Of a DNA stretch of 64,000 nt, positions 34,129 through 53,858 are shown one piece after another. Position numbers and translations under genes: made by a program. The first letter of the stretch is position 1. Every line of letters begins with the position of its first letter. Location of the stretch: positions 160,001 through 224,000 of the forward strand of contig CAVVXN010000001.1 in NCBI GenBank assembly GCA_963752285.1. Direction: 5' to 3'. This DNA comes from an uncultured Planctomycetota bacterium. Lineage in GTDB: Bacteria > Planctomycetota > PLA2 > JAEUHO01. The notes beneath the pieces were generated by a model. The model searched no databases and was not told the DNA's origin. It saw only the letters and a program-made list of their open reading frames with translations.

Positions 34129-35034
34129 TCAGGCCCCCAGACGCTCGAGGAGGCGATCGAGGTCGTCGGGATCGTGGTAGTGCACCTCGATCCGACCGCT
34201 CTTGCCCTGCGTCCTGATCCGGACCTGCGTCGAGAGGGAACGCTCGAGGCGCGTCTCGAGGTCCCGCAGGTAGGGATCCTCACCTCGGGCGCGCCGCCGC
34301 CCTACCGTGGGGCCCGAACGTGCCCGTCGCTCGATCTCGCGGACCGACAGGCCGCGCTCCACGGCCAGGCGCGCGAGCGAGAGCCGCCGCTCGGTTCCCT
34401 GGGCCTGGAGCAGCGCCCGGGCGTGGGCCCCGCTGAGCCGCCCCTCCTCGACCCACGCCTGGATCTCGGAGGGGAGGTCGAGGAGCCGAAGGATGTTCGC
34501 GATCGTGGTCCGTGCCTTCCCCACGCGGCGCGCCACGTCTTCCTGCGTGAGCCCGAAGTTCCGGAGCATCGCATTCATCGCCCGCGCCTTCTCCATCGCG
34601 TTCAGGTCCTCGCGCTGGAGGTTCTCGACGAGGGCGAGCGTCTGCATCTCCTCGTCGCTGGCCCGGCGGACCAGCGCCGGGATCCGATCGAGGCCGATGC
34701 GTTCGGCGGCGCGGAGGCGGCGCTCGCCGGCGATCAGCTCCCAACCGCCCGTCGGGGAAGGACGCACGACGACCGGCTGGATGACCCCGTGCTCCCGGAT
34801 CGATGACGCGAGCTCGTCCAGCGCCTCCTCCGCGAATGCGGTCCGAGGCTGGAACGGATTGCGCCGGATCTCCCCTACGGGCAGGGCGCGCGTTCCGATT
34901 TCGGCCCCCTCGCGCGCCGCATCGGCCGCCTCGGGAGGGGAAAACGACCGTCGCTCCACCGCGTCCGGGCTCGTCGTCTCGGGGGTCGCGCCGAGCAGGT
35001 TCCCCAGCCCGCGCCCCAGTCGCTTCGGTCGCAT
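34129..35034 (-). CDS. parB: Chromosome partitioning protein ParB
   Basis: KRLGRGL ParA-interaction motif, NPFQPR, IAGERRLRA, ENLQREDL, HTH, HARAL; AAGGAG RBS. Confidence 0.95.
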   Translation of the reverse strand: MRPKRLGRGLGNLLGATPETTSPDAVERRSFSPPEAADAAREGAEIGTRALPVGEIRRNPFQPRTAFAEEALDELASSIREHGVIQPVVVRPSPTGGWELIAGERRLRAAERIGLDRIPALVRRASDEEMQTLALVENLQREDLNAMEKARAMNAMLRNFGLTQEDVARRVGKARTTIANILRLLDLPSEIQAWVEEGRLSGAHARALLQAQGTERRLSLARLAVERGLSVREIERRARSGPTVGRRRARGEDPYLRDLETRLERSLSTQVRIRTQGKSGRIEVHYHDPDDLDRLLERLGA

Positions 35035-35150
35035 CGCCGTCTCCTTCCGTCCCGGGGTCCGTCCCGAGATCGTGCGCCGGCCCGGATCGGCGGTGCCTTC
35101 CGGGCGCCCGGAGGGCCGGTCCTCCCGAGGGGGCCGGCCCGCCTCGTACT

Positions 35151-35186
35151 CGTCTTCCTGCCGGTCTTCCTGCTCGTCTTCCTGCC
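35151..35186. repeat. 3 x 12-bp tandem repeat (C/G)GTCTTCCTGC(C/T)
   Basis: Read directly from the sequence upstream of parB. Confidence 0.8.
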
Positions 35187-35293
35187 CGGGGCCGCGGCCC
35201 GACGTCGCCCCAAACGGCGGCGGTGAGACGCGCATCGCGGCACTCTCTGACTTCGGCTCGCGGGTCGCCCGAACGCAGCCCGCACGCAGACGA

Positions 35294-35309
35294 TGTTCCC
35301 CGGGGAACA
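35294..35309. promoter_or_regulatory. parS-like palindrome 1, TGTTCCCCGGGGAACA
   Basis: Perfect 16-bp palindrome upstream of parB; differs from TGTTCCACGTGGAACA only at positions 7 and 10. Confidence 0.8.
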
Positions 35310-35488
35310 GACCCATGCTGCCCGAAGGGGAGGACACGCGCCGGCGCCCGGCCCCCCGCACGCCAACGAGGTCGCTGGGCCCGTGCGCCCGGAGAACACG
35401 GACCTCGACAGGGCCACAGCGCCCGGACCCGCAATCCCCTCCGGCGTCGCGCCGGCACGGACCTCGCGACCTCCCCGGTACGCGAGGA

Positions 35489-35504
35489 TGTTCCCCGGGG
35501 AACA
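35489..35504. promoter_or_regulatory. parS-like palindrome 2, TGTTCCCCGGGGAACA
   Basis: Identical second copy 195 bp from the first. Confidence 0.8.
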
Positions 35505-40327: not shown

Positions 40328-41500
40328 CTACTGGTCGGATACCTCCCGCCCGGCGGTCGCCGGAGCATCCGGGGGGAACGTCCCTTCCAGCACCGAGGCG
40401 TAGACGGCCTCGTACTGGGGGACGACGGCGTCCCGGGAGAAACGCTCCACCGCGGAGCGCCGAGCGGCCGCCTTCAGGCGGGCGAGCCGTTCGCGGTCCT
40501 CGAGGAGGTCCGCGGCCCGTTCGCCGAGGTCGTCGATCGCCTCCTCCGGCACGAGGAGGCCGTCCACGTCGTCCCGGACGACCTCGGGCAGGCCGCCGGC
40601 CCGCGTCACGATCGGCACCACGCCGCAGGCCATGGCCTCGAGCGCGGCCAGGCCGAACGACTCGTACTCGCTCGGGAGGAACAGCACGTCCGCCGCGGGC
40701 AGGAGCGTCTCGACGTTGGCCTGGGCGCCGAGGAATCGCGTGCTCGACCGGAGCCCGAGGTCCCGCGCGCGCGCCTCGCAGGGCGCCCGATCCGGGCCGT
40801 CGCCGATCATCAGGAGCGTCGCCGGACCGCGCGCCCGCACCCGCGCGAAGGCCTCCACGACCTTCACGGCGCGCTTCACGGGGCGGAAGTTGCTCATGTG
40901 GACAACGACCGGCTCACCGCGCGGGGCGAAGCAGGTCTTGACGCTCGGCGAGACGTCGGGACGGAACCGCTCGGGGTCCACGAAGTTCGTGATGACCTCG
41001 ATGGGGCGGTCCACGTCGAAGATGCGTCGGGTCTCCTTCTCGAGGTAGCTCGACACGCAGGTGACCGCGTCGCTCGCGAGCAACGCGTGGCGTGTCACGC
41101 GCGCGTACGAACGGTCCTGGCCCACGATGGTGATGTCGGTTCCATGGAGCGTGGTGACGACCGGGAAGGGCCGCGGTTTGAGGATGTCCTTCACGAGCAG
41201 CGCCGCGATGGCGTGCGGGATCGCATAGTGCACGTGCACGAGGTCGAGAGACGCTTCCTCGGCGACGTCCGCGAGGCGCGAGGCGAGCGCGAGGTCGTAC
41301 GGGGGATAGCGGAAGAGCGGATACGAGGAGACCTCGACCTCGTGGAGCCGGATGTGCTCGTCGAAGACATCGAGGCGCGCGGGCGGCGCGTACGAGACGA
41401 GGTGCACCTCGTGACCGTGGAGAGCGAGACCGCGGCCGAGCTCGGTCGCCACGACGCCCGAGCCGCCGAAGGTCGGATAGCAGACGATGCCGATCCTCAC
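40328..41500 (-). CDS. bshA: N-acetyl-glucosaminyl L-malate synthase
   Basis: IGIVCYPTFGGSGVVATELG, YPLF.YPPY, HVHYAIPHA, TTLHGTDIT, SNFRPVKR, ESFGLAALEAM. Confidence 0.96.
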   Translation of the reverse strand: MRIGIVCYPTFGGSGVVATELGRGLALHGHEVHLVSYAPPARLDVFDEHIRLHEVEVSSYPLFRYPPYDLALASRLADVAEEASLDLVHVHYAIPHAIAALLVKDILKPRPFPVVTTLHGTDITIVGQDRSYARVTRHALLASDAVTCVSSYLEKETRRIFDVDRPIEVITNFVDPERFRPDVSPSVKTCFAPRGEPVVVHMSNFRPVKRAVKVVEAFARVRARGPATLLMIGDGPDRAPCEARARDLGLRSSTRFLGAQANVETLLPAADVLFLPSEYESFGLAALEAMACGVVPIVTRAGGLPEVVRDDVDGLLVPEEAIDDLGERAADLLEDRERLARLKAAARRSAVERFSRDAVVPQYEAVYASVLEGTFPPDAPATAGREVSDQ

Positions 41501-42237
41501 AGCACCGCCCATCCGCGCTTGCGGAGTGCCGAGACTGGATCGTCGAGCGCGATCACCCGCTCCGCGACGTACGGCTCCGCCCACGCCGCGCCGACGCGCG
41601 CGCCCCAGTACGCGAATCGCGCCTCGTACCGCCGCATGAAGTCGGGCGAGGAGAGGTTCGTCGCGGGTCCGCCGTCGGAGGGCCGCCCGAGCTGCGACGC
41701 GTAGCAGCTCACGAGCTCGCGCCGCCGCTCCCAAACGTCCGACACGTCGATCACGAACGTCGGCGGCGGCTCGAGGTGCCCAAGGTAGTGGAGGATCGCA
41801 TCGGGACGGTGCGGGGGGAGCCCGTCCACGTCGATCCCGGCGATGGTGGAGAGGTAGTACGCGCGCTTCACCAGCGCCGCGCCGGCCACGTGGTCGGGAT
41901 GGAGGTCCACCGGCGCGGGCGCGAGCACGACGCGCGGGCGCCAGCGTCGGATCGCCGCGATCGCGGGCCGCGTCGCCTCCGGCGTCGCGACGACGGCGCC
42001 GTCGGGAAGCCCGAGGTTCTCCCGCGCGACGAGTCCCATCAGCTTCGTGGCGCGCGCCGACTCCGCACGCCGCGTCTCGGGAGTGCCCCGGCTGGCGGAC
42101 TCGCCCGCGGTCAGGTCCACGACGACCGTGCGGCGGCCCTCGTCACGAAGGCGGAGCATCCAGCCCCCCGCGCAGAGCTCGACGTCGTCGGGGTGCGGGC
42201 CGAAGGCCAGCACGTCGATCGGCTCGGGTCTCTCCAA
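41497..42237 (-). CDS. bshB1: Bacillithiol biosynthesis deacetylase
   Basis: HPDDVE, DLTAGE..SRGT..R..E, HPDH, CYASQ; 4-nt overlap with bshA. Confidence 0.92.
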   Translation of the reverse strand: MERPEPIDVLAFGPHPDDVELCAGGWMLRLRDEGRRTVVVDLTAGESASRGTPETRRAESARATKLMGLVARENLGLPDGAVVATPEATRPAIAAIRRWRPRVVLAPAPVDLHPDHVAGAALVKRAYYLSTIAGIDVDGLPPHRPDAILHYLGHLEPPPTFVIDVSDVWERRRELVSCYASQLGRPSDGGPATNLSSPDFMRRYEARFAYWGARVGAAWAEPYVAERVIALDDPVSALRKRGWAVL

Positions 42238-42248
42238 GGTCCTGCCTC

Positions 42249-43907
42249 CTATCCGCCCGCGCCGAGAAGGTGCACCAGATGGTGGCCCTCGGCGAGCGGA
42301 TCGAGGCCGGCGAGCCCCTCGCGAAACGCCTCGACCCCGTGCCGGGCGACGAGCGACAGAGGCGAGAGGACCCGCTCCTGGGGGCGATCGCGCGGCCAGA
42401 GCCAGTCGTGGAGGCGCCGGCGGCGGTCCGCACCGACCCCCCGGTCCCGGTCGAAGGCGGCGAGGACCGACGGGGCCGACTCCCGCGCCGCCCCGGCGAC
42501 GCGCTCCCCGGCGCGGGCGAGCGCGCGGGCCACCTCGCCACCGCCCTGCACGTAGGGGCGAAGGTCCTCAGTCTCTGTCCCGAGGCGCGCGGCCCACGCC
42601 GCGAGCGCGCGCTCGAGCGCCGCGCGCTCCTCGGCGTCGGGGACCGCGGACCGGTCCAGGAGCGCGGGGTCCGAGAGCAGAGCCGCGAGGTCGAGACCGA
42701 ACGCCCGGACGTTCTTCTCGATCTTCGGCTCGAGCCAGGTGGCGGCGGGACGCGGCACCGCGAGCGAGGGTCCGAGCCCGACCGCGGGGCGGGCCGCGGC
42801 GACCTCGGCGTGGTACGCGAGCTCGGTCGGGCCGCCGACGTAGGCGAGCACGGGGAGGAGGAGGTCCTGGACGAGGACGCGACCGGCGGCGTCGCCGGAC
42901 GCGAGGAACGGATCCTCGCGGATGCGCCGCGCCACCTCCGCCACGTCGAGACCCGAGGCGCGCCCGCGGAGGAGGACCTCGCCCCCCGGGGTGACGGTCA
43001 CGCGGAGTCGGGGGCCGCCGCGCTCCTCGCGGAGGAAGAGCGGCGCCTCGCCGGGCGCCGGGGCGAGCGGCGCGGCGAGCCCGGCCGCCTCGAGCGCGCG
43101 GCGGGCGCCGTCGAGCGCCGCGCGGACCTCGGCGTGGCGCTCGAGGAGGCGCGCGAGCGCGTCGCCCGCGAACGGCAGGAGGACCGGCGGCTCGACGATC
43201 ACCAGGCCCGCGTCGCCGAGGAGCGACGCGAGCTGGCGCGCCGACCACGTCGCCAGGTCCTCGCCCTCGTCCGGTTCCGGCAGGGACGCGAGGGCGGCGC
43301 GCGCGCGTTCGGTGTCGGGTAGGATGCCCGCCACCTCCTCGCGGAGCGCGGCGGCGGCCGCGCGGTCCACGGTTCGGTCCATCAGGCTCCGCCCGTCGGC
43401 CTCGCCAGGCAGCGAGAGACGGCGCGGACGCCCGTCCCGGTCGAGGAGGCACGCGCGGTTCGCCTCGTCGAAGTCGTGGTCCTCGGAGGCGAGCCAGAAG
43501 ACCGGTACGACGGGCCGACCGTCGAGCGCGGCGAGACGGCGCGCGAGGTGGATCGCGCCCGCCGCCTTGTGAAAGGTCATGAGCGGCCCGCCGAGGAGGC
43601 CGGGCTGCTGTCCCGTCACCACCGCGACGGCGTCCGGCTCCGCGAGCGCGCGGGCCGCGGCGACGGCGCGCGGCCCGAGGCCCAACGCGGTCTGACGGGC
43701 CGCGACGGCCAGGACGAGGTCGGCCGGCGGACGCGAAGCCTCCCGCCGCGCCCGGGTGAGCGCCGTCCCCCAGGCCGCGTCGTCCCTCGGCAGCACAGGG
43801 AGGAAGCGCGACGCCGGACCCTCGCCCCGGAGCAGCGCGGCGGGGAACGGGCCGGGCGACGGCGCGCGGTCCGGCGGGATGCGCTCGATCCGGGCCGCCT
43901 CGCCCAC
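42249..43907 (-). CDS. bshC: Bacillithiol cysteine-adding enzyme
   Basis: VVTGQQ.GL.GGPL...K, PVFWLASEDHDFDE, YVGGP.E.AY, PQER. Confidence 0.92.
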   Translation of the reverse strand: MGEAARIERIPPDRAPSPGPFPAALLRGEGPASRFLPVLPRDDAAWGTALTRARREASRPPADLVLAVAARQTALGLGPRAVAAARALAEPDAVAVVTGQQPGLLGGPLMTFHKAAGAIHLARRLAALDGRPVVPVFWLASEDHDFDEANRACLLDRDGRPRRLSLPGEADGRSLMDRTVDRAAAAALREEVAGILPDTERARAALASLPEPDEGEDLATWSARQLASLLGDAGLVIVEPPVLLPFAGDALARLLERHAEVRAALDGARRALEAAGLAAPLAPAPGEAPLFLREERGGPRLRVTVTPGGEVLLRGRASGLDVAEVARRIREDPFLASGDAAGRVLVQDLLLPVLAYVGGPTELAYHAEVAAARPAVGLGPSLAVPRPAATWLEPKIEKNVRAFGLDLAALLSDPALLDRSAVPDAEERAALERALAAWAARLGTETEDLRPYVQGGGEVARALARAGERVAGAARESAPSVLAAFDRDRGVGADRRRRLHDWLWPRDRPQERVLSPLSLVARHGVEAFREGLAGLDPLAEGHHLVHLLGAGG

Positions 43908-47937: not shown

Positions 47938-49362
47938 ATGGGCGAGGTGAGCGTGCCGGTGGACCGTCGTCGAGGAAGCGACGGGTTCTCTCGGCTCCTC
48001 GAGGCGATTCGCAAGCGGGTCAACAAGCAGCAGTACGCGACGTGGTTCCAGCGCACCACGCTCGTGAGCTGGGAGCCCGGCCATCTCGTGATCGGCCTCC
48101 CCAACCGGTTCTACGAGGAGTGGTTCCAGCGTCACTTCCGCGGTCTGATCGAGCGTGCCGCGGAGGAGCTCGGCGAGGCGCCGATGCGCGTGGGGTTCGA
48201 GGTCGTCGAGGGCCCGCCCTCGGCGGGCGACGAGGCGGAGGCCCGCACGGCGCCCGCGCGGGCCCCCTCTCCCTCGTCGCCCGAAGCGTCGGCGGCGCCA
48301 GAGCTCGTGACCGCGCCCGCCGCGGCCGCCGCCGGGTTCGGCCTCCGTCTGAACGAGCTCTACACATTCGACAACTTCATCATCGGTCCGAGCAACCGTG
48401 TCGCGGCGGCAAGCGCCCGCGCGGTCGCGAACGATCCCGGGCGCGCGTACAACCCGCTCTTCCTGCACGGCTCGGTGGGGCTCGGCAAGACCCACCTCCT
48501 CCACGCCGTCTGTCACGCCTTCCTCTCGGGCCGTGGTGGGCAACGAATCTGCTTCCTCTCGTGCGAGGAGTTCACGAACGAGTTCGTCCAGGCCCTCCAA
48601 CGACACGATCTGGAGACGTTCCGACAGCGCTTCCGCAACGTGGACCTGCTCGTCATCGACGACATCCACTTCCTGGTCGGGAAGGAACGCATCCAGGACG
48701 AGTTCTTCCACACCTTCAACCGCCTCTACCAGACCCATCACCAGATCGTGCTGTCGAGCGACGCCCCGCCGACCGAGATCCCCACCCTCCAGGACCGCCT
48801 CGTCAGCCGGTTCAAGTGGGGTCTCGTGGCGAACATCGACAAGCCCGAGATGGAGACGCGGATGGCCATCGTCCAGCGCAAGACGAACCTGCTGGGCATG
48901 GCGGTCCCGAACGACGTGGTCGAGTTCATCGCGGCGAACTTCAGGAACAACATCCGCGAGCTCGAGGGCGCCCTGCACAGCGTGACGGCGCGCGCGGGCG
49001 TCCTGAACGTGCCGATCGACCTGACCCTCGCCCAGGAGGCGCTCGAACCGTCACTCCTCGGGGGCCGGCCCCCGATGACGCTGGACCGCATCACGGAGGC
49101 CGTGGCGGCGCACTACCAGGTCAAGATCTCGGACCTGCGTTCGAAGCGACGGAGCCGGAGCGTCTCGACCCCCCGGCAGATCGTGATGTACCTGGCGCGC
49201 GAGACCACGGACCTCTCGCTCGATGAGATCGGCGATCACTTCGGTGGACGGGACCACAGCACGGTCCTCTACGCGATCCGCCGGATCCGGGACCAGGTCG
49301 AGTCCGACACGCGTTTTGCCGCCGAGGTCGGCCGCCTCCGGGACCGCCTGGGCGCCCGTTGA
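47938..49362 (+). CDS. dnaA: Chromosomal replication initiator DnaA
   Basis: YTFDNF, YNPLFLHG.VGLGKTHL, IDDIHF, NIRELEG, GGRDHSTV; GGAGG RBS. Confidence 0.98.
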   Translation: MGEVSVPVDRRRGSDGFSRLLEAIRKRVNKQQYATWFQRTTLVSWEPGHLVIGLPNRFYEEWFQRHFRGLIERAAEELGEAPMRVGFEVVEGPPSAGDEAEARTAPARAPSPSSPEASAAPELVTAPAAAAAGFGLRLNELYTFDNFIIGPSNRVAAASARAVANDPGRAYNPLFLHGSVGLGKTHLLHAVCHAFLSGRGGQRICFLSCEEFTNEFVQALQRHDLETFRQRFRNVDLLVIDDIHFLVGKERIQDEFFHTFNRLYQTHHQIVLSSDAPPTEIPTLQDRLVSRFKWGLVANIDKPEMETRMAIVQRKTNLLGMAVPNDVVEFIAANFRNNIRELEGALHSVTARAGVLNVPIDLTLAQEALEPSLLGGRPPMTLDRITEAVAAHYQVKISDLRSKRRSRSVSTPRQIVMYLARETTDLSLDEIGDHFGGRDHSTVLYAIRRIRDQVESDTRFAAEVGRLRDRLGAR

Positions 49363-49828
49363 TGCCGGGTGCCGCGGGCCGCACGCAGAAGCCCTTGTCT
49401 CCCAAGGGCTTGAGGGTGCACCGTGCCCTCTCCGAGGTGCGGCCTGCCCACGCCGGGAGCGTCCGATTCCGGTGGAGAACCGGGGAGCCGCGGGGAGGCC
49501 GGTGGGGAGAGCGCGCGGAGTACCGTGACCCGGGTCGCCGGGGGGCTCCGGAAGGGCTGAAATCCCTGTCTCTCCACCCTCGGGACCGTACAATGTGGGA
49601 CTCTTCCCCAGCGCCTTTCCACCGTCGCGACACACGTCGCAAATCGTTGGCGGCCAAGGGCTTCGAAGGACGCGCCACGGTGGCGATCGGGAATCCGACG
49701 CGGATCGAGACGACGACGACGAACCATCTATCTCCTTCTCTTCGTACCCGTCGGGAGAAGGCTCGGACGAGACGGGCGGACCGATGCGAGGTACCCCCCT
49801 CCGCGTCGCCGTCGAGGGGGTCCTCCCA
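49363..49828. other. Candidate oriC
   Basis: 466-bp dnaA-dnaN gap with degenerate DnaA-box-like 9-mers, paired CAA-N4-TT motifs and trinucleotide runs. Confidence 0.6.
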
Positions 49829-50932
49829 ATGAAGGTCACGCTGCCCACCGCCCGGCTCGTGGACGCCGTCGGTCACGCCGCGAGCGTCGCCGCGTCGAAG
49901 AGCCCGAAGCCCTCGCTCGAGTGCGTGGCGCTTACCGCCGACCCGAGCACGGGACTCTCGCTCGAGGCGACCGACCTCGACGTGGGCGTCCGCATCCGCC
50001 TGCCCGAGGCGGACGTGGCGGAGGGGGGCACGGTCCTGGTCGCGGCCGGTCGTCTCGCGTCCGTGCTGCGCGAGGTCCAGGACGAGGAGACCACGCTCAC
50101 GGGGGACGAAGGTGGCCTCAGCCTGCGGACCGGTCGCAGCCAGTTCCGACTGCGCGGGGACGATCGCGAGGGCTTCCCCGAGATCCCCACGTTTCCCGAG
50201 GAGGGCCGGCTGACGGTTCCGGGGGAGACGCTCCGCAACATGATCCGGCGCACGGCCTTCGCCACCGCCAAGGAGGCGGGACGCTACGCCCTGCACGGCG
50301 TGCTCTTCCTGGCGCAGGGCGGACAGCTCGAGCTCGTGGCGACCGACGGTCGCCGCCTCGCGCGTGCGGTTCGGCCTCTCGACGCCTCCTCGGACGCCAC
50401 CCTGCGCGTGATCGTCGGTGCGAAGGGCCTCTCGGTCCTGGACCGTGTGATGGGGACGCCTGCCGGCGACGTCGCGATCGCCTTGGGCGAGCGCCAGGTG
50501 CTCTTCCAGGTCGGGGGCACGCTCCTGGTGAGCCGGTTGATCGACGGTTCCTTCCCGGCCTACGAGGACGTGATCCCGCGCACGAGCACCGGCATGCTCC
50601 GGATCGGCGCCGCGGATCTCGCGGGGGCGCTCAGGAAGGTGCAGCTGCTCACGACCCGCGACGCGATCTCCGTGCAGTTCGAGATCGCGCCCGAGACGCT
50701 CACGATCCGGTCGCGTGCCGCCGAGGTGGGGGAGGCGCGCGTCGAGGTACCCATCTTCTACGAGGGCGACCGCCTCCAGCTCGGGTTCAACCCGCTCTTC
50801 CTGAGCGACGCCCTGAAGGTCATGGACCCGGCCGCCGAGGTGCGGTTCGAGTTTTCGGACGGCAAGGCCCCCGGCAAGCTGACCGACGACGACGCGTACG
50901 TCTACGTCGTGATGCCGATTGCGCTCGAATGA
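49829..50932 (+). CDS. dnaN: DNA polymerase III beta clamp
   Basis: ATDLDV, RYALHGV, VATDGRRLA, SRLIDG.FP.Y..VIP, GFNP, YVVMP. Confidence 0.97.
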   Translation: MKVTLPTARLVDAVGHAASVAASKSPKPSLECVALTADPSTGLSLEATDLDVGVRIRLPEADVAEGGTVLVAAGRLASVLREVQDEETTLTGDEGGLSLRTGRSQFRLRGDDREGFPEIPTFPEEGRLTVPGETLRNMIRRTAFATAKEAGRYALHGVLFLAQGGQLELVATDGRRLARAVRPLDASSDATLRVIVGAKGLSVLDRVMGTPAGDVAIALGERQVLFQVGGTLLVSRLIDGSFPAYEDVIPRTSTGMLRIGAADLAGALRKVQLLTTRDAISVQFEIAPETLTIRSRAAEVGEARVEVPIFYEGDRLQLGFNPLFLSDALKVMDPAAEVRFEFSDGKAPGKLTDDDAYVYVVMPIALE

Positions 50933-51345
50933 CGGCGGCTCGCGCATGGAACGCTCCCACGGGACGCCCCGCGCCGGGGGAAGCACGGACCCGGATGAAC
51001 AAGCGACGACGCCACATTGCATCCGTCGGCGAGCTGCTGGGCCCCGCGCTCCGCGACCTCGGCATGCCGTCGGCGCGGCTCACGAAGCGCGTGCTCGTCG
51101 CGTGGGCCCAGGCGGCCGACCCCGCCTGGCGGGACGACGCCACGCCCCTCCGCCTCGACGGCGGCGTCCTGGTGGTCGGCGTCCGCTCGTCCGCGCTCCG
51201 CCAGGAGCTGACACAGTTTCACCGCACCCGACTGCTCCACGTCCTCAAGACGGCGCTTCCGGACGTGCCGCTCGTGGGGCTCCACTTCGGCGTCTACGAC
51301 CAGACGCCGCCGGTCGGGGGCTCAGTACCCGGAGACGATCGATGA
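50929..51345 (+). CDS. dciA: DciA/DUF721 helicase-operating protein
   Basis: Lies between dnaN and gyrB with ATGA overlaps at both ends; W..AA...P....GVLVVGV.SSALRQEL; alternative start at 50995. Confidence 0.8.
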   Translation: MTAARAWNAPTGRPAPGEARTRMNKRRRHIASVGELLGPALRDLGMPSARLTKRVLVAWAQAADPAWRDDATPLRLDGGVLVVGVRSSALRQELTQFHRTRLLHVLKTALPDVPLVGLHFGVYDQTPPVGGSVPGDDR

Positions 51346-53858
51346 CGCCCGAACCCGCTCCCCCCGTCGAGACGACCGGCGACGTCGGCGCCACGCCCGG
51401 CGGGGTGTCCGCCGATCCGGCGGCCGCAGGCGACGGAGGCTACAACGCCGACACCATCCAGGTCCTCGAGGGCCTGGAAGCCGTTCGAAAGCGCCCCGGT
51501 ATGTACATCGGGGACACGAGCTCCCGCGGCCTCCACCATCTGGTCTACGAGATCGTCGACAACGCGATCGACGAGGCGATGGCGGGCTACTGCAAGAACA
51601 TCAGCGTGCGCGTGACGGCGGACAACGGCGTCGTCGTGACCGACGACGGCCGCGGCATCCCGACCGACATCAACAAGTCGCAGGGGATTGCCGGCGTCAC
51701 GATCGCGTACACGAAGCTCCACGCGGGTGGGAAGTTCAACAAGGGCGTCTACAAGGTGAGCGGTGGCCTGCACGGCGTCGGCGCGAGCGTCGTGAACGCT
51801 CTCTCCGAGCTCTGTGAGGTGGAGGTCTACCAGGCCGGCCACATCCACTTCCAGGCGTTCGTGCGGGGTCGCCCGCAGGCGGACCTGGAGCGCCGCGGCA
51901 AGACGGAACGCCGGGGCACGAAGGTCTACTTCAAGCCCGACCGTCAGATCTTCGGAGAGTACCGGTTCGACACGAACCTGCTCACGAACCGGTTGCGCGA
52001 GCTCGCGTTCCTGAACCGTGGGGTCCTGATCCGATTCGTAGACGAGCGGGGCGACCCGCCGGTCGAGCGTGAGTTCCGCTTCGAGGGGGGCATTCAGGAG
52101 TTCGTCCTGCGCCTGAACGAGGGGCGCCGTCCGCTCCACGACGACGTCATCTACGTCGAGGCCGAGCAAGACAACGTGGTCGTCGAGATCGCGGTCCAGT
52201 TCCACGACGGCTACTCGGAGAACGTGCAGGCCTTCGCCAACAACATCCCCACGCACGAGGGGGGCACGCACGTGTCGGGCTTCCGCACGGCGCTCACGCG
52301 GAGCCTGATGAACTACGCGCGGCGCGAGAACCTCTTCAAGGCCACCGACAAGCCCTCCGGCGAGGACTTTCGCGAGGGCCTGACGGCCGTCATCAGCGTG
52401 AAGGTGCCCGAGCCGCAGTTCGAGGGCCAGACGAAGACGAAGCTCGGCAACAGCGAGATCGAGGGCATCGTGGCGACGGTCTGGGGCGAGGCGCTCAAGA
52501 CGTACCTGGAGGAGCACCCCAAGAACGCGCGCAACATCCTCGACAAGGCGATCCAGGCGTACCAGGCCCGCGAGGCGGCGCGGAAGGCGCGCGACCTCGT
52601 GCGGAGGAAGGGTGCGTTGTCGTCCGGTGGCCTCCCCGGACGGCTCGCGGACTGCTCGAGCCACGACGTCGAGACCACCGAGCTCTTCCTGGTGGAGGGC
52701 GAGTCGGCCGGCGGGTCGGCGAAGGGCGGGCGCGACCGCAACACGCAGGCGATCCTGCCGCTCAAGGGCAAGATCCTGAACGTCGAGAAGGCGCGCATCG
52801 ACAAGATGCTCGCCCACGAGGAGATCCGTTCCCTCATCACCGCGCTCGGCACGGGCATCGGCGTCGAGGACTTCGACGGGTCGAAGTGCCGGTACGGCAA
52901 GATCATCATCATGACCGACGCGGACGTGGACGGAAGCCACATCCGCACGCTGCTCCTCACGTTCCTCTTCCGTCACATGCGCGAGCTGATCGAGATGGGT
53001 CGCATCTACGTGGCCCAGCCGCCGCTCTTCAAGCTCTCGCGCCGGAAGCACGAGGAGTACATCTTCGACGAGCGCGACCTCGAGCGTCGCCTCGAGGAGC
53101 TCGGCGCCGGGTCGCTCACGCTCGAGAGCTCCGGGATGAACGGGTTCGAGCCCGTGACCGGTCCGCGGTTGCGGAACCTGGCGGAGGCCCTCGCTCGCAT
53201 CCAGGGCATCGCGCGCTCCATCGAGCGCCGCGGTCTCCCGCCGGGCGAGTACCTCGCGGAGGCCGCCGGCGACGGCACGCTTCCGGTCGCGTTCGTCACG
53301 AGCGCCCGCGCGCCCGAGAACCGGGTCTTCGCCCGGTCCGAGGAGGACATCACGCAGTTCATCGACCAGGAAGAGGCGATGATCGGGCGCGAGGCGCGCG
53401 TGTTCGAGAAGGACGAGAAGAACGGATCGGCCGCGGAGGCCGACGTCGTCGTGACGCGGATCTACGAGCACGTGGAGCTCGAGGACCACGTCCGGGTCAT
53501 CCTCGACTTCGGGCTCGACCCCCGCGACTGGAAGGGTGGCGCGGAGGCGCGGTACGTCCTGAAGGTCCAGGATGGGGAGCCGATCCTCCTCAGCTCGCTC
53601 GAGGACGTGCTGGTCCACGTCCGCAAGGCCGGCCAGCGGGGCGTGGACGTGCAGCGCTACAAGGGACTCGGCGAGATGAACCCGGACCAGCTCTGGGACA
53701 CGACGATGGACCCGACCAAGCGCACTCTGCTCCGCGTCAACCTCTCGGACGGCGCGGAGGCCGACCGCCTCTTCAGCCTGCTGATGGGGGAGAGCGTCGA
53801 GCCGCGGCGCCACTTCGTCGAGCAGCACGCCCTCGACGTGCAGGACCTCGACATCTGA
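51342..53858 (+). CDS. gyrB: DNA gyrase subunit B
   Basis: EAVRKRPGMYIG, LHAGGKF, VEGESAGG, MTDADVDG, QRYKGLGEM; long Toprim insertion. Confidence 0.98.
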   Translation: MTPEPAPPVETTGDVGATPGGVSADPAAAGDGGYNADTIQVLEGLEAVRKRPGMYIGDTSSRGLHHLVYEIVDNAIDEAMAGYCKNISVRVTADNGVVVTDDGRGIPTDINKSQGIAGVTIAYTKLHAGGKFNKGVYKVSGGLHGVGASVVNALSELCEVEVYQAGHIHFQAFVRGRPQADLERRGKTERRGTKVYFKPDRQIFGEYRFDTNLLTNRLRELAFLNRGVLIRFVDERGDPPVEREFRFEGGIQEFVLRLNEGRRPLHDDVIYVEAEQDNVVVEIAVQFHDGYSENVQAFANNIPTHEGGTHVSGFRTALTRSLMNYARRENLFKATDKPSGEDFREGLTAVISVKVPEPQFEGQTKTKLGNSEIEGIVATVWGEALKTYLEEHPKNARNILDKAIQAYQAREAARKARDLVRRKGALSSGGLPGRLADCSSHDVETTELFLVEGESAGGSAKGGRDRNTQAILPLKGKILNVEKARIDKMLAHEEIRSLITALGTGIGVEDFDGSKCRYGKIIIMTDADVDGSHIRTLLLTFLFRHMRELIEMGRIYVAQPPLFKLSRRKHEEYIFDERDLERRLEELGAGSLTLESSGMNGFEPVTGPRLRNLAEALARIQGIARSIERRGLPPGEYLAEAAGDGTLPVAFVTSARAPENRVFARSEEDITQFIDQEEAMIGREARVFEKDEKNGSAAEADVVVTRIYEHVELEDHVRVILDFGLDPRDWKGGAEARYVLKVQDGEPILLSSLEDVLVHVRKAGQRGVDVQRYKGLGEMNPDQLWDTTMDPTKRTLLRVNLSDGAEADRLFSLLMGESVEPRRHFVEQHALDVQDLDI

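Follow-up and report, generated by a model that had tools for sequence, protein, structure and literature searches.

A probable variant of chromosomal parS and its likely ParB partner in an uncultured planctomycete

The chromosomal centromere parS appears to have been rewritten in an uncultured Planctomycetota bacterium (GCA_963752285.1), in which two copies of a variant palindrome are likely the host centromere, bound by the sole ParB through a retained Arg173 and a remodelled Gly200-Ala201 (Caulobacter numbering). Relative to canonical parS, both arms have C in place of A at base 6, a base change that recurs across unrelated lineages. The variant sites stand in for canonical parS at the orthologous parB locus. 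As judged from the comparison of genomes, the recoding of chromosomal parS is real, lineage-wide and repeated, and is accompanied by matching ParB changes. The parts of this reading are not equally firm: a centromeric role of the two palindromes is very likely, a contribution of residues 200-201 to site choice is probable, and a strict orthogonality of the variant pair with respect to canonical parS is less likely, indeed doubtful.

Two variant sites upstream of a single parB

The window, meaning the whole stretch of 64,000 nucleotides that was analysed, contains parB on the minus strand (34129-35034), encoding a protein of 301 aa with ParB_N, HTH_ParB and ParB_C domains; PF02195, PF17762 and PF23552 all score above cut-off, and no other full-length ParB was found in the host assembly. 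Two copies of TGTTCCCCGGGGAACA, neither of them assigned to a strand, occupy the gap between parB and a divergent ORF. Copy 1 (35294-35309) lies 260 bp upstream of parB and copy 2 (35489-35504) precedes by 15 bp the start codon (ATG, 35520) of the divergent ORF, for which neither Pfam nor NCBIfam gave a match. The positions and the identical sequence of the two palindromes, already reported in a preliminary description of this DNA, were verified.

These copies are the only exact ones in the assembly (4,640,562 bases in 5 contigs, 89% complete), in which the nearest other match has two mismatches. Two exact copies were thus observed against an expectation of 0.0007 under an order-3 and 0.0016 under an order-5 Markov model; shuffles of the window, a weaker test with up to three mismatches allowed, reached two sites in 5 of 100 cases. 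The same assembly (4.64 Mb, 89% complete) holds neither canonical parS nor the Noc site (NBS): the canonical consensus TGTTNCACGTGAAACA, from which both host sites deviate at base 6 of each arm, has no copy, and NBS has none with up to three mismatches. At 89% completeness, a canonical site may have escaped the assembly. The genome-wide count proposed in the preliminary description therefore gives two variant sites, near dnaA, against zero canonical ones, and the two outcomes that it had named as contrary to its reading, dominant canonical sites or a scattered palindrome, were not seen in the host genome. Its statement that standard searches would miss the site also holds, in that an exact search for canonical parS returns nothing in the host assembly. 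A generic repeat was ruled out for the host genome.

Caulobacter residue numbers were transferred by aligning the host protein with the ParB of structure chain 6t1f. Arg175 (34510-34512, minus strand) corresponds to R173, to which PMC7383237 ascribes the reading of guanine 1, and is retained. Ala203 (34426-34428, minus strand) occupies the position of the conserved Gly201 and faces base pair 6. Both codons had been singled out in the preliminary description and are correct; Gly202 (34429-34431, minus strand), at position 200, is a second ParB change that was absent from it. At the four specificity positions (173, 179, 184 and 201) the host ParB reads R-I-D-A. The Ala172 of GKAR was rejected as a determinant, the same Ala being present in Thermus Spo0J and in G015, a genome with a canonical site. 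The GERRLRA arginine patch (34708-34728, minus strand), a CTP-binding motif according to PMC7333895, is intact, with GERR retained in 27/27 ParBs of the host family, and so is the LGRGL peptide of the N-terminus (MRPKRLGRGLGNLLG).

The variant sites are 12.5 kb from the origin-region marker dnaA (47989-49347, plus strand; family match above cut-off), with dnaN and gyrB as further context markers at 49786-53858 on the plus strand; gyrB scored above cut-off, and dnaN was recognised by tblastn (E 2e-29) and had no NCBIfam match at 1e-10. Contig C1 has a weak GC skew, the cumulative minimum of which is 1.8 kb from the variant sites, and a DnaA-box scan of 110 kb gave a single box and did not locate oriC. 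No Walker-A gene or parA accompanies parB in any of the 27 host-family loci (approximately 4 kb each). A ParA candidate, unlinked to parB (C2:321261-322142), shares 38-47% identity with ten operon-linked ParAs, and an SMC gene is located on contig C5. A second, more distant ParA-like gene is present in the host at G000:C2:235844-236740.

Site types in the host order

The host order comprised 40 genomes, 38 of them with a ParB match. In all 20 listed genomes of the order with both genes on one contig, parB and dnaA are 11.9-15.8 kb apart whatever the site type, and this constant distance indicates that the parB locus is orthologous across the order. Within the host family, 13 of the 27 parB loci carry TGTT(C/T)CCCGGG(G/A)AACA and seven carry GACTCCCGGGAGTC; the others comprise four loci with canonical parS, two with mixed or half sites and one siteless locus on a short contig. 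A pattern covering both cores gave 30 matches in the 13 CCCGGG genomes of the family (28 CCCGGG, 2 half and 0 canonical sites), 27 of which adjoin parB.

The GACTCCCGGGAGTC sequence has 23 matches, in 7 of the 40 order genomes, and every one is at most about 2 kb from parB. Ser175 and Ser177 are common to the seven ParBs concerned and occur in 0 of the 20 other ParBs of the family. One of these genomes (G002) also has a single canonical match, on a different contig. The GACTCCCGGGAGTC clusters by parB (L010, L012, L013, L016, L017, L019 and L020) represent the most diverged state.

Among the 11 ParBs of the sister family, six combine canonical parS with Arg173, and four have CTTTCCACGTGGAAAG by parB (L036, L037, L039 and L040) together with Pro, Ala or Ser in place of Arg173. 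For one of the 11, with Pro at 173, no site was found, and none lies within 12 kb in G034 (Pro173). Among genomes with a called site, base 1 is altered in 4/4 that have lost Arg173; it is altered in 0/200 that retain this residue. As to base 6, G007 and G024, which branch separately from the Ala clade, have CCCGGG-core sites with Gly201. G004 carries Gly200-Ala201 yet has three canonical sites, and the Ala201 ParB of G012 is accompanied by a canonical site and two half sites.

The variant site and ParB residues in other phyla

Species genomes were scanned for variant sites in pairs, at spacings of 23-53 bp only, and gave at least 80 loci in approximately 40 genomes. The Chloroflexota among the matches listed number 26; they were picked by DNA alone and their ParBs were identified afterwards. 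Position 201 of these ParBs is Ala in 21, Arg in 3 and Thr in 2, and Gly in none, and canonical parS is present in 2 of the 26 genomes. Three Chloroflexota ParBs with R173/R201 pair with a mixed site, TGTTTCCCGGGAAACA. For the control, 111 Chloroflexota were drawn phylum-wide, of which 92 had a ParB and 89 were retrieved besides the centre genome; 88 of these 89 ParBs have Gly201 (1/89 non-Gly), and 68 are accompanied by canonical parS. One control genome with Gly201 (G186) has seven variant and no canonical sites.

The Chloroflexota variant pairs are not beside parB; they are flanked by an NYN gene and a methyltransferase gene. Their distance from dnaA is 16-18 kb in G086 and G081. In G079 and G080 they lie 680 kb or more into contigs that carry no dnaA, and dnaA was not found in three other Chloroflexota genomes with a variant pair. 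In one relative with canonical sites, a parS pair adjoins dnaN, and 2 kb separate it from this methyltransferase gene.

In the Acidobacteriota, three variant sites precede parAB in two Terriglobia, whose ParB has Ser201. Of 57 ParBs in a Terriglobales sample, 51 have Gly201 and two non-Gly ParBs have a canonical site. Four non-Gly Terriglobales (G224, G228, G238 and G251; L336-L339) showed neither site type and no palindrome by parB, possibly reflecting a further site type or parS loss. Acidobacteriota that combine Ser201 with canonical sites diverge below the two variant genomes of the phylum, which fits a change of the protein first and of the site later. G091 (Ser201) carries 36 variant sites across contigs in addition to three canonical ones. 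Scattering of parS-like pairs round the chromosome was observed in the Terriglobia G091, G092 (L057, L058 and others) and G261, the last with 45 canonical sites.

A metagenome scan yielded 29 loci, 24 of them with Chloroflexota gene context and two with parB. One of these two belongs to the host Planctomycetota family. The other is contig L388 (39% G+C), with two sites before parAB, dnaA 2.6 kb off and an Ala201 ParB that has at most 49% identity to every ParB of the comparison set.

The palindrome was also met in tandem repeats. A Nitrospirales contig contains at about 142-173 kb an array of some 30 kb with a 46-bp period (L086-L096, L110-L115 and L122-L123), many units of which carry CGTTCCCCGGGGAACG, and the genome concerned (a 16-Mb assembly) gave no ParB match at 1e-25. 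The variant palindrome is likewise found within tandem units of 41 bp in Polyangiaceae (L133) and 21 bp in Treponema (L117), away from parB. All three were rejected as origins of the site, being generic repeats, and Treponema was kept only as a doubtful case. In a Gemmatimonadota genome (G089, L172), half-changed sites, TGTTTCCCGTGAAACA, precede parA alongside a Gly ParB, and a full variant pair is on a separate small contig.

Across 232 ParBs, a set that includes kin, so that its counts are not independent, canonical sites accompany Gly201 in 144 cases and another residue in 4, and CCCGGG-core sites accompany Gly201 in 4 and another residue in 45; the remaining ParBs have a base-1 variant (4), a mixed site (3) or no call (28). 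In a tree built without the trait columns, the host family, the 26 Chloroflexota and the Acidobacteriota each formed a supported group of their own. A single clade of the Planctomycetota and Chloroflexota ParBs was rejected (p-AU 1e-5, on 48 of the 232 rows), as was the passage of one recoded parB from either of these groups to the other. Six origins of the CCCGGG site, four non-Gly and two Gly, were counted by eye on the trees. With a non-Gly background of 7/175 in ParBs not chosen by site, the non-Gly residues in 3/5 origins outside the discovery clade give p 6e-4 (3/7 and 2e-3 with two doubtful cases), values that, like the origin count, are post hoc and were obtained with data already seen. 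A tree-based independent pairs test of position 201 against site (5 pairs, median p 0.5) was not significant. In a scan of all columns, loss of Gly201 ranked first and gain of Gly200 second; Gly200 is found in 43/49 CCCGGG genomes, 1/148 canonical genomes and 0/175 ParBs not chosen by site, and is absent from the Terriglobia variant genomes and from L388.

The covariation of Ala with CCGG cores anticipated in the preliminary description thus survives in a weakened form. Loss of Gly201 does accompany CCCGGG across separate phyla (45/49 vs 4/148), but Ala is neither necessary, four genomes (G007, G024, G186 and G027) having CCCGGG with Gly, nor sufficient, given the canonical sites of G004 and the mixed ones of G012, and the pair test lends no significance. 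A strict Ala-to-CCCGGG rule is refuted by these exceptions in both directions and, because they run both ways, Ala201 is probably permissive or biasing rather than a strict switch. It is hence rather doubtful that Ala201 makes ParB specific for CCCGGG and blind to canonical parS, yielding the orthogonal pair that the preliminary description had considered possible. Such a switch is difficult to reconcile with G004 and G012, with the 36 variant and three canonical sites next to Ser201 in G091, or with the library variants of PMC7383237, where Ser or Thr at 201 often confers dual parS/NBS specificity, even though Arg201 variants favour cytosine 6 in the same work. The absence of canonical sites from 13/13 variant genomes of the family and 24/26 Chloroflexota would suit it better, as would the narrow site tolerance described in PMC5450999 for a Gly-type chromosomal ParB, which was left unbound after symmetric site changes except those at 1/16 and 5/12.

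At the other extreme, the parS core may have drifted, neutrally or under G+C pressure, on a tolerant ParB, leaving residues 200-201 as a lineage marker with no effect on DNA choice. This is unlikely: the variant exists at 39% G+C (L388), TTT/AAA arms are kept in contigs of 47-66% G+C, the high-G+C sister genomes retain the canonical core, and non-Gly residues stand at 7/175 in ParBs not chosen by site against 4/6 origins. The G+C content of the host genome (73%), the four Gly ParBs with CCCGGG cores and the outcome of the pair test are the observations that drift would explain most readily.

Relation to known systems and possible mechanism

That the palindromes could be operators of another regulator, or serve chiefly the autoregulation of parB and its divergent neighbour rather than segregation, is suggested by the position of both sites in a divergent promoter region, one of them 15 bp from a start codon, by their number (two), by the unlinked parA, and by the location of the Chloroflexota pair between NYN and methyltransferase genes. 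This is very unlikely, as related genomes have canonical parS at the same place, the site type follows ParB residues at two separate positions, site spacing ranges from 27 to 195 bp, and ParB retains an undamaged CTP motif and LGRGL peptide; autoregulation would, moreover, be compatible with centromere function. A Noc-like nucleoid-occlusion system is barely conceivable, despite the CCCGGG core and a best NCBIfam score of the host ParB to the Noc model (218.7 bits, below the cut-off of 315), given two sites only, both near dnaA, Arg rather than Gln at 173, the absence of Lys or Arg at 179 and 184, and no second ParB in the assembly.

The host system resembles the chromosomal ParB-parS of Bacillus, Caulobacter and Thermus in the three domains, the GERR motif and R173 of its ParB, in a palindrome of 16 bp near dnaA that has GTT/AAC arms and CG at its centre, and in the presence of ParA-like and SMC genes in the genome. 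It differs from them by C instead of A at base 6, Ala instead of Gly201, Gly at position 200 and an unlinked parA. With the Noc-NBS system of Bacillota it shares the CCCGGG core and the replacement of Gly at position 201; unlike Noc, it keeps G1 and R173, lacks Q173, K179, K184 and R201, has two origin-proximal sites rather than many spread ones, and its ParB is not a duplicate beside a normal ParB. Our verdict is that the recoded pair probably works like ParB-parS, departs from the canonical consensus and from Gly201, and is not Noc.

The engineered ParB-to-Noc intermediates RTAR, RKAR, RXXS, RXXT and RRXA, described in PMC7383237, similarly combine R173 with a changed residue 201 and a site in which features of parS and NBS are mixed. 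In contrast to these, the host ParB is of natural origin and seems to be the sole ParB of its cell. Lys or Arg at 179 or 184, termed permissive in that work for the full switch to Noc specificity, occurs in 0/27 ParBs of the host family, and position 200 is outside the four positions varied there. Natural altered 16-bp parS-like palindromes with matching ParBs are known from the Bsr systems of Burkholderiales secondary replicons (PMC5450999); those systems belong to plasmids and secondary chromosomes under compatibility pressure, whereas the host pair is at the dnaA locus.

In earlier work, chromosomal parS is termed common to all species with one conserved sequence (PMC5450999, PMC7022226), Gly201 is termed absolutely conserved in extant ParB (PMC7383237), and the parS consensus and its difference from NBS are set out (PMC7022226, PMC7333895). 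No published report of the exact strings, the variant or the lineages was found by a search from whose reach sequences in figures and supplements were excluded. According to PMC7383237, R173 bonds guanine 1, G201 offers no side chain, and R201 of Noc bonds guanine -6; the natural ParB set agrees with this code at both positions 173 and 201.

On the preferred reading of the palindromes as a variant centromere, ParB would load at the two sites, clamp with CTP and spread, and may cooperate with SMC and the unlinked ParA-like protein encoded on contig C2. A small side chain at position 201 would lie over base -6, where, on steric grounds, guanine could be easier to accommodate than the methyl group of thymine, and a poor fit against this methyl would lead to a relaxed or biased base-6 choice. 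The residue at 201, aided by Gly200, might in this manner relax the choice or tilt it toward C:G. The site would then drift to CCCGGG and, in one sub-clade, onward to GACTCCCGGGAGTC, the ParB change being permissive or biasing and presumably no absolute switch.

Repeated natural changes in a sole ParB would provide a living series in which an essential protein-DNA pair shifts its specificity while no spare copy exists. Predictions of mutational order drawn from the ParB-to-Noc library become directly testable on it, and the natural path seems to proceed without permissive lysines. Genomes of this kind would be scored as parS-less by exact canonical searches. If the pairs are orthogonal, they would add to the tools for locus labelling and partition.

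A more far-reaching reading, tentative when its three claims are taken jointly, is that the centromere code of the primary chromosome, regarded as near-universal, was rewritten at least six times, one order having passed through four states (canonical, CCCGGG, GACTCCCGGGAGTC and CTTTCCACGTGGAAAG); that residues and bases would correspond as 173 to base 1, 200-201 to base 6 and 175/177 to bases 2-3; and that the end states might be mutually orthogonal, reached without gene duplication or the permissive lysines of the laboratory landscape.

Two further observations concern the host genome. A second DnaA-like gene, below the family cut-off, is located at G000:C5:932316-933605. The window also carries, at 40328-43907, a bshA above cut-off next to genes that by eye resemble bshB and bshC, which would make this a bacillithiol cluster in a member of the Planctomycetota.
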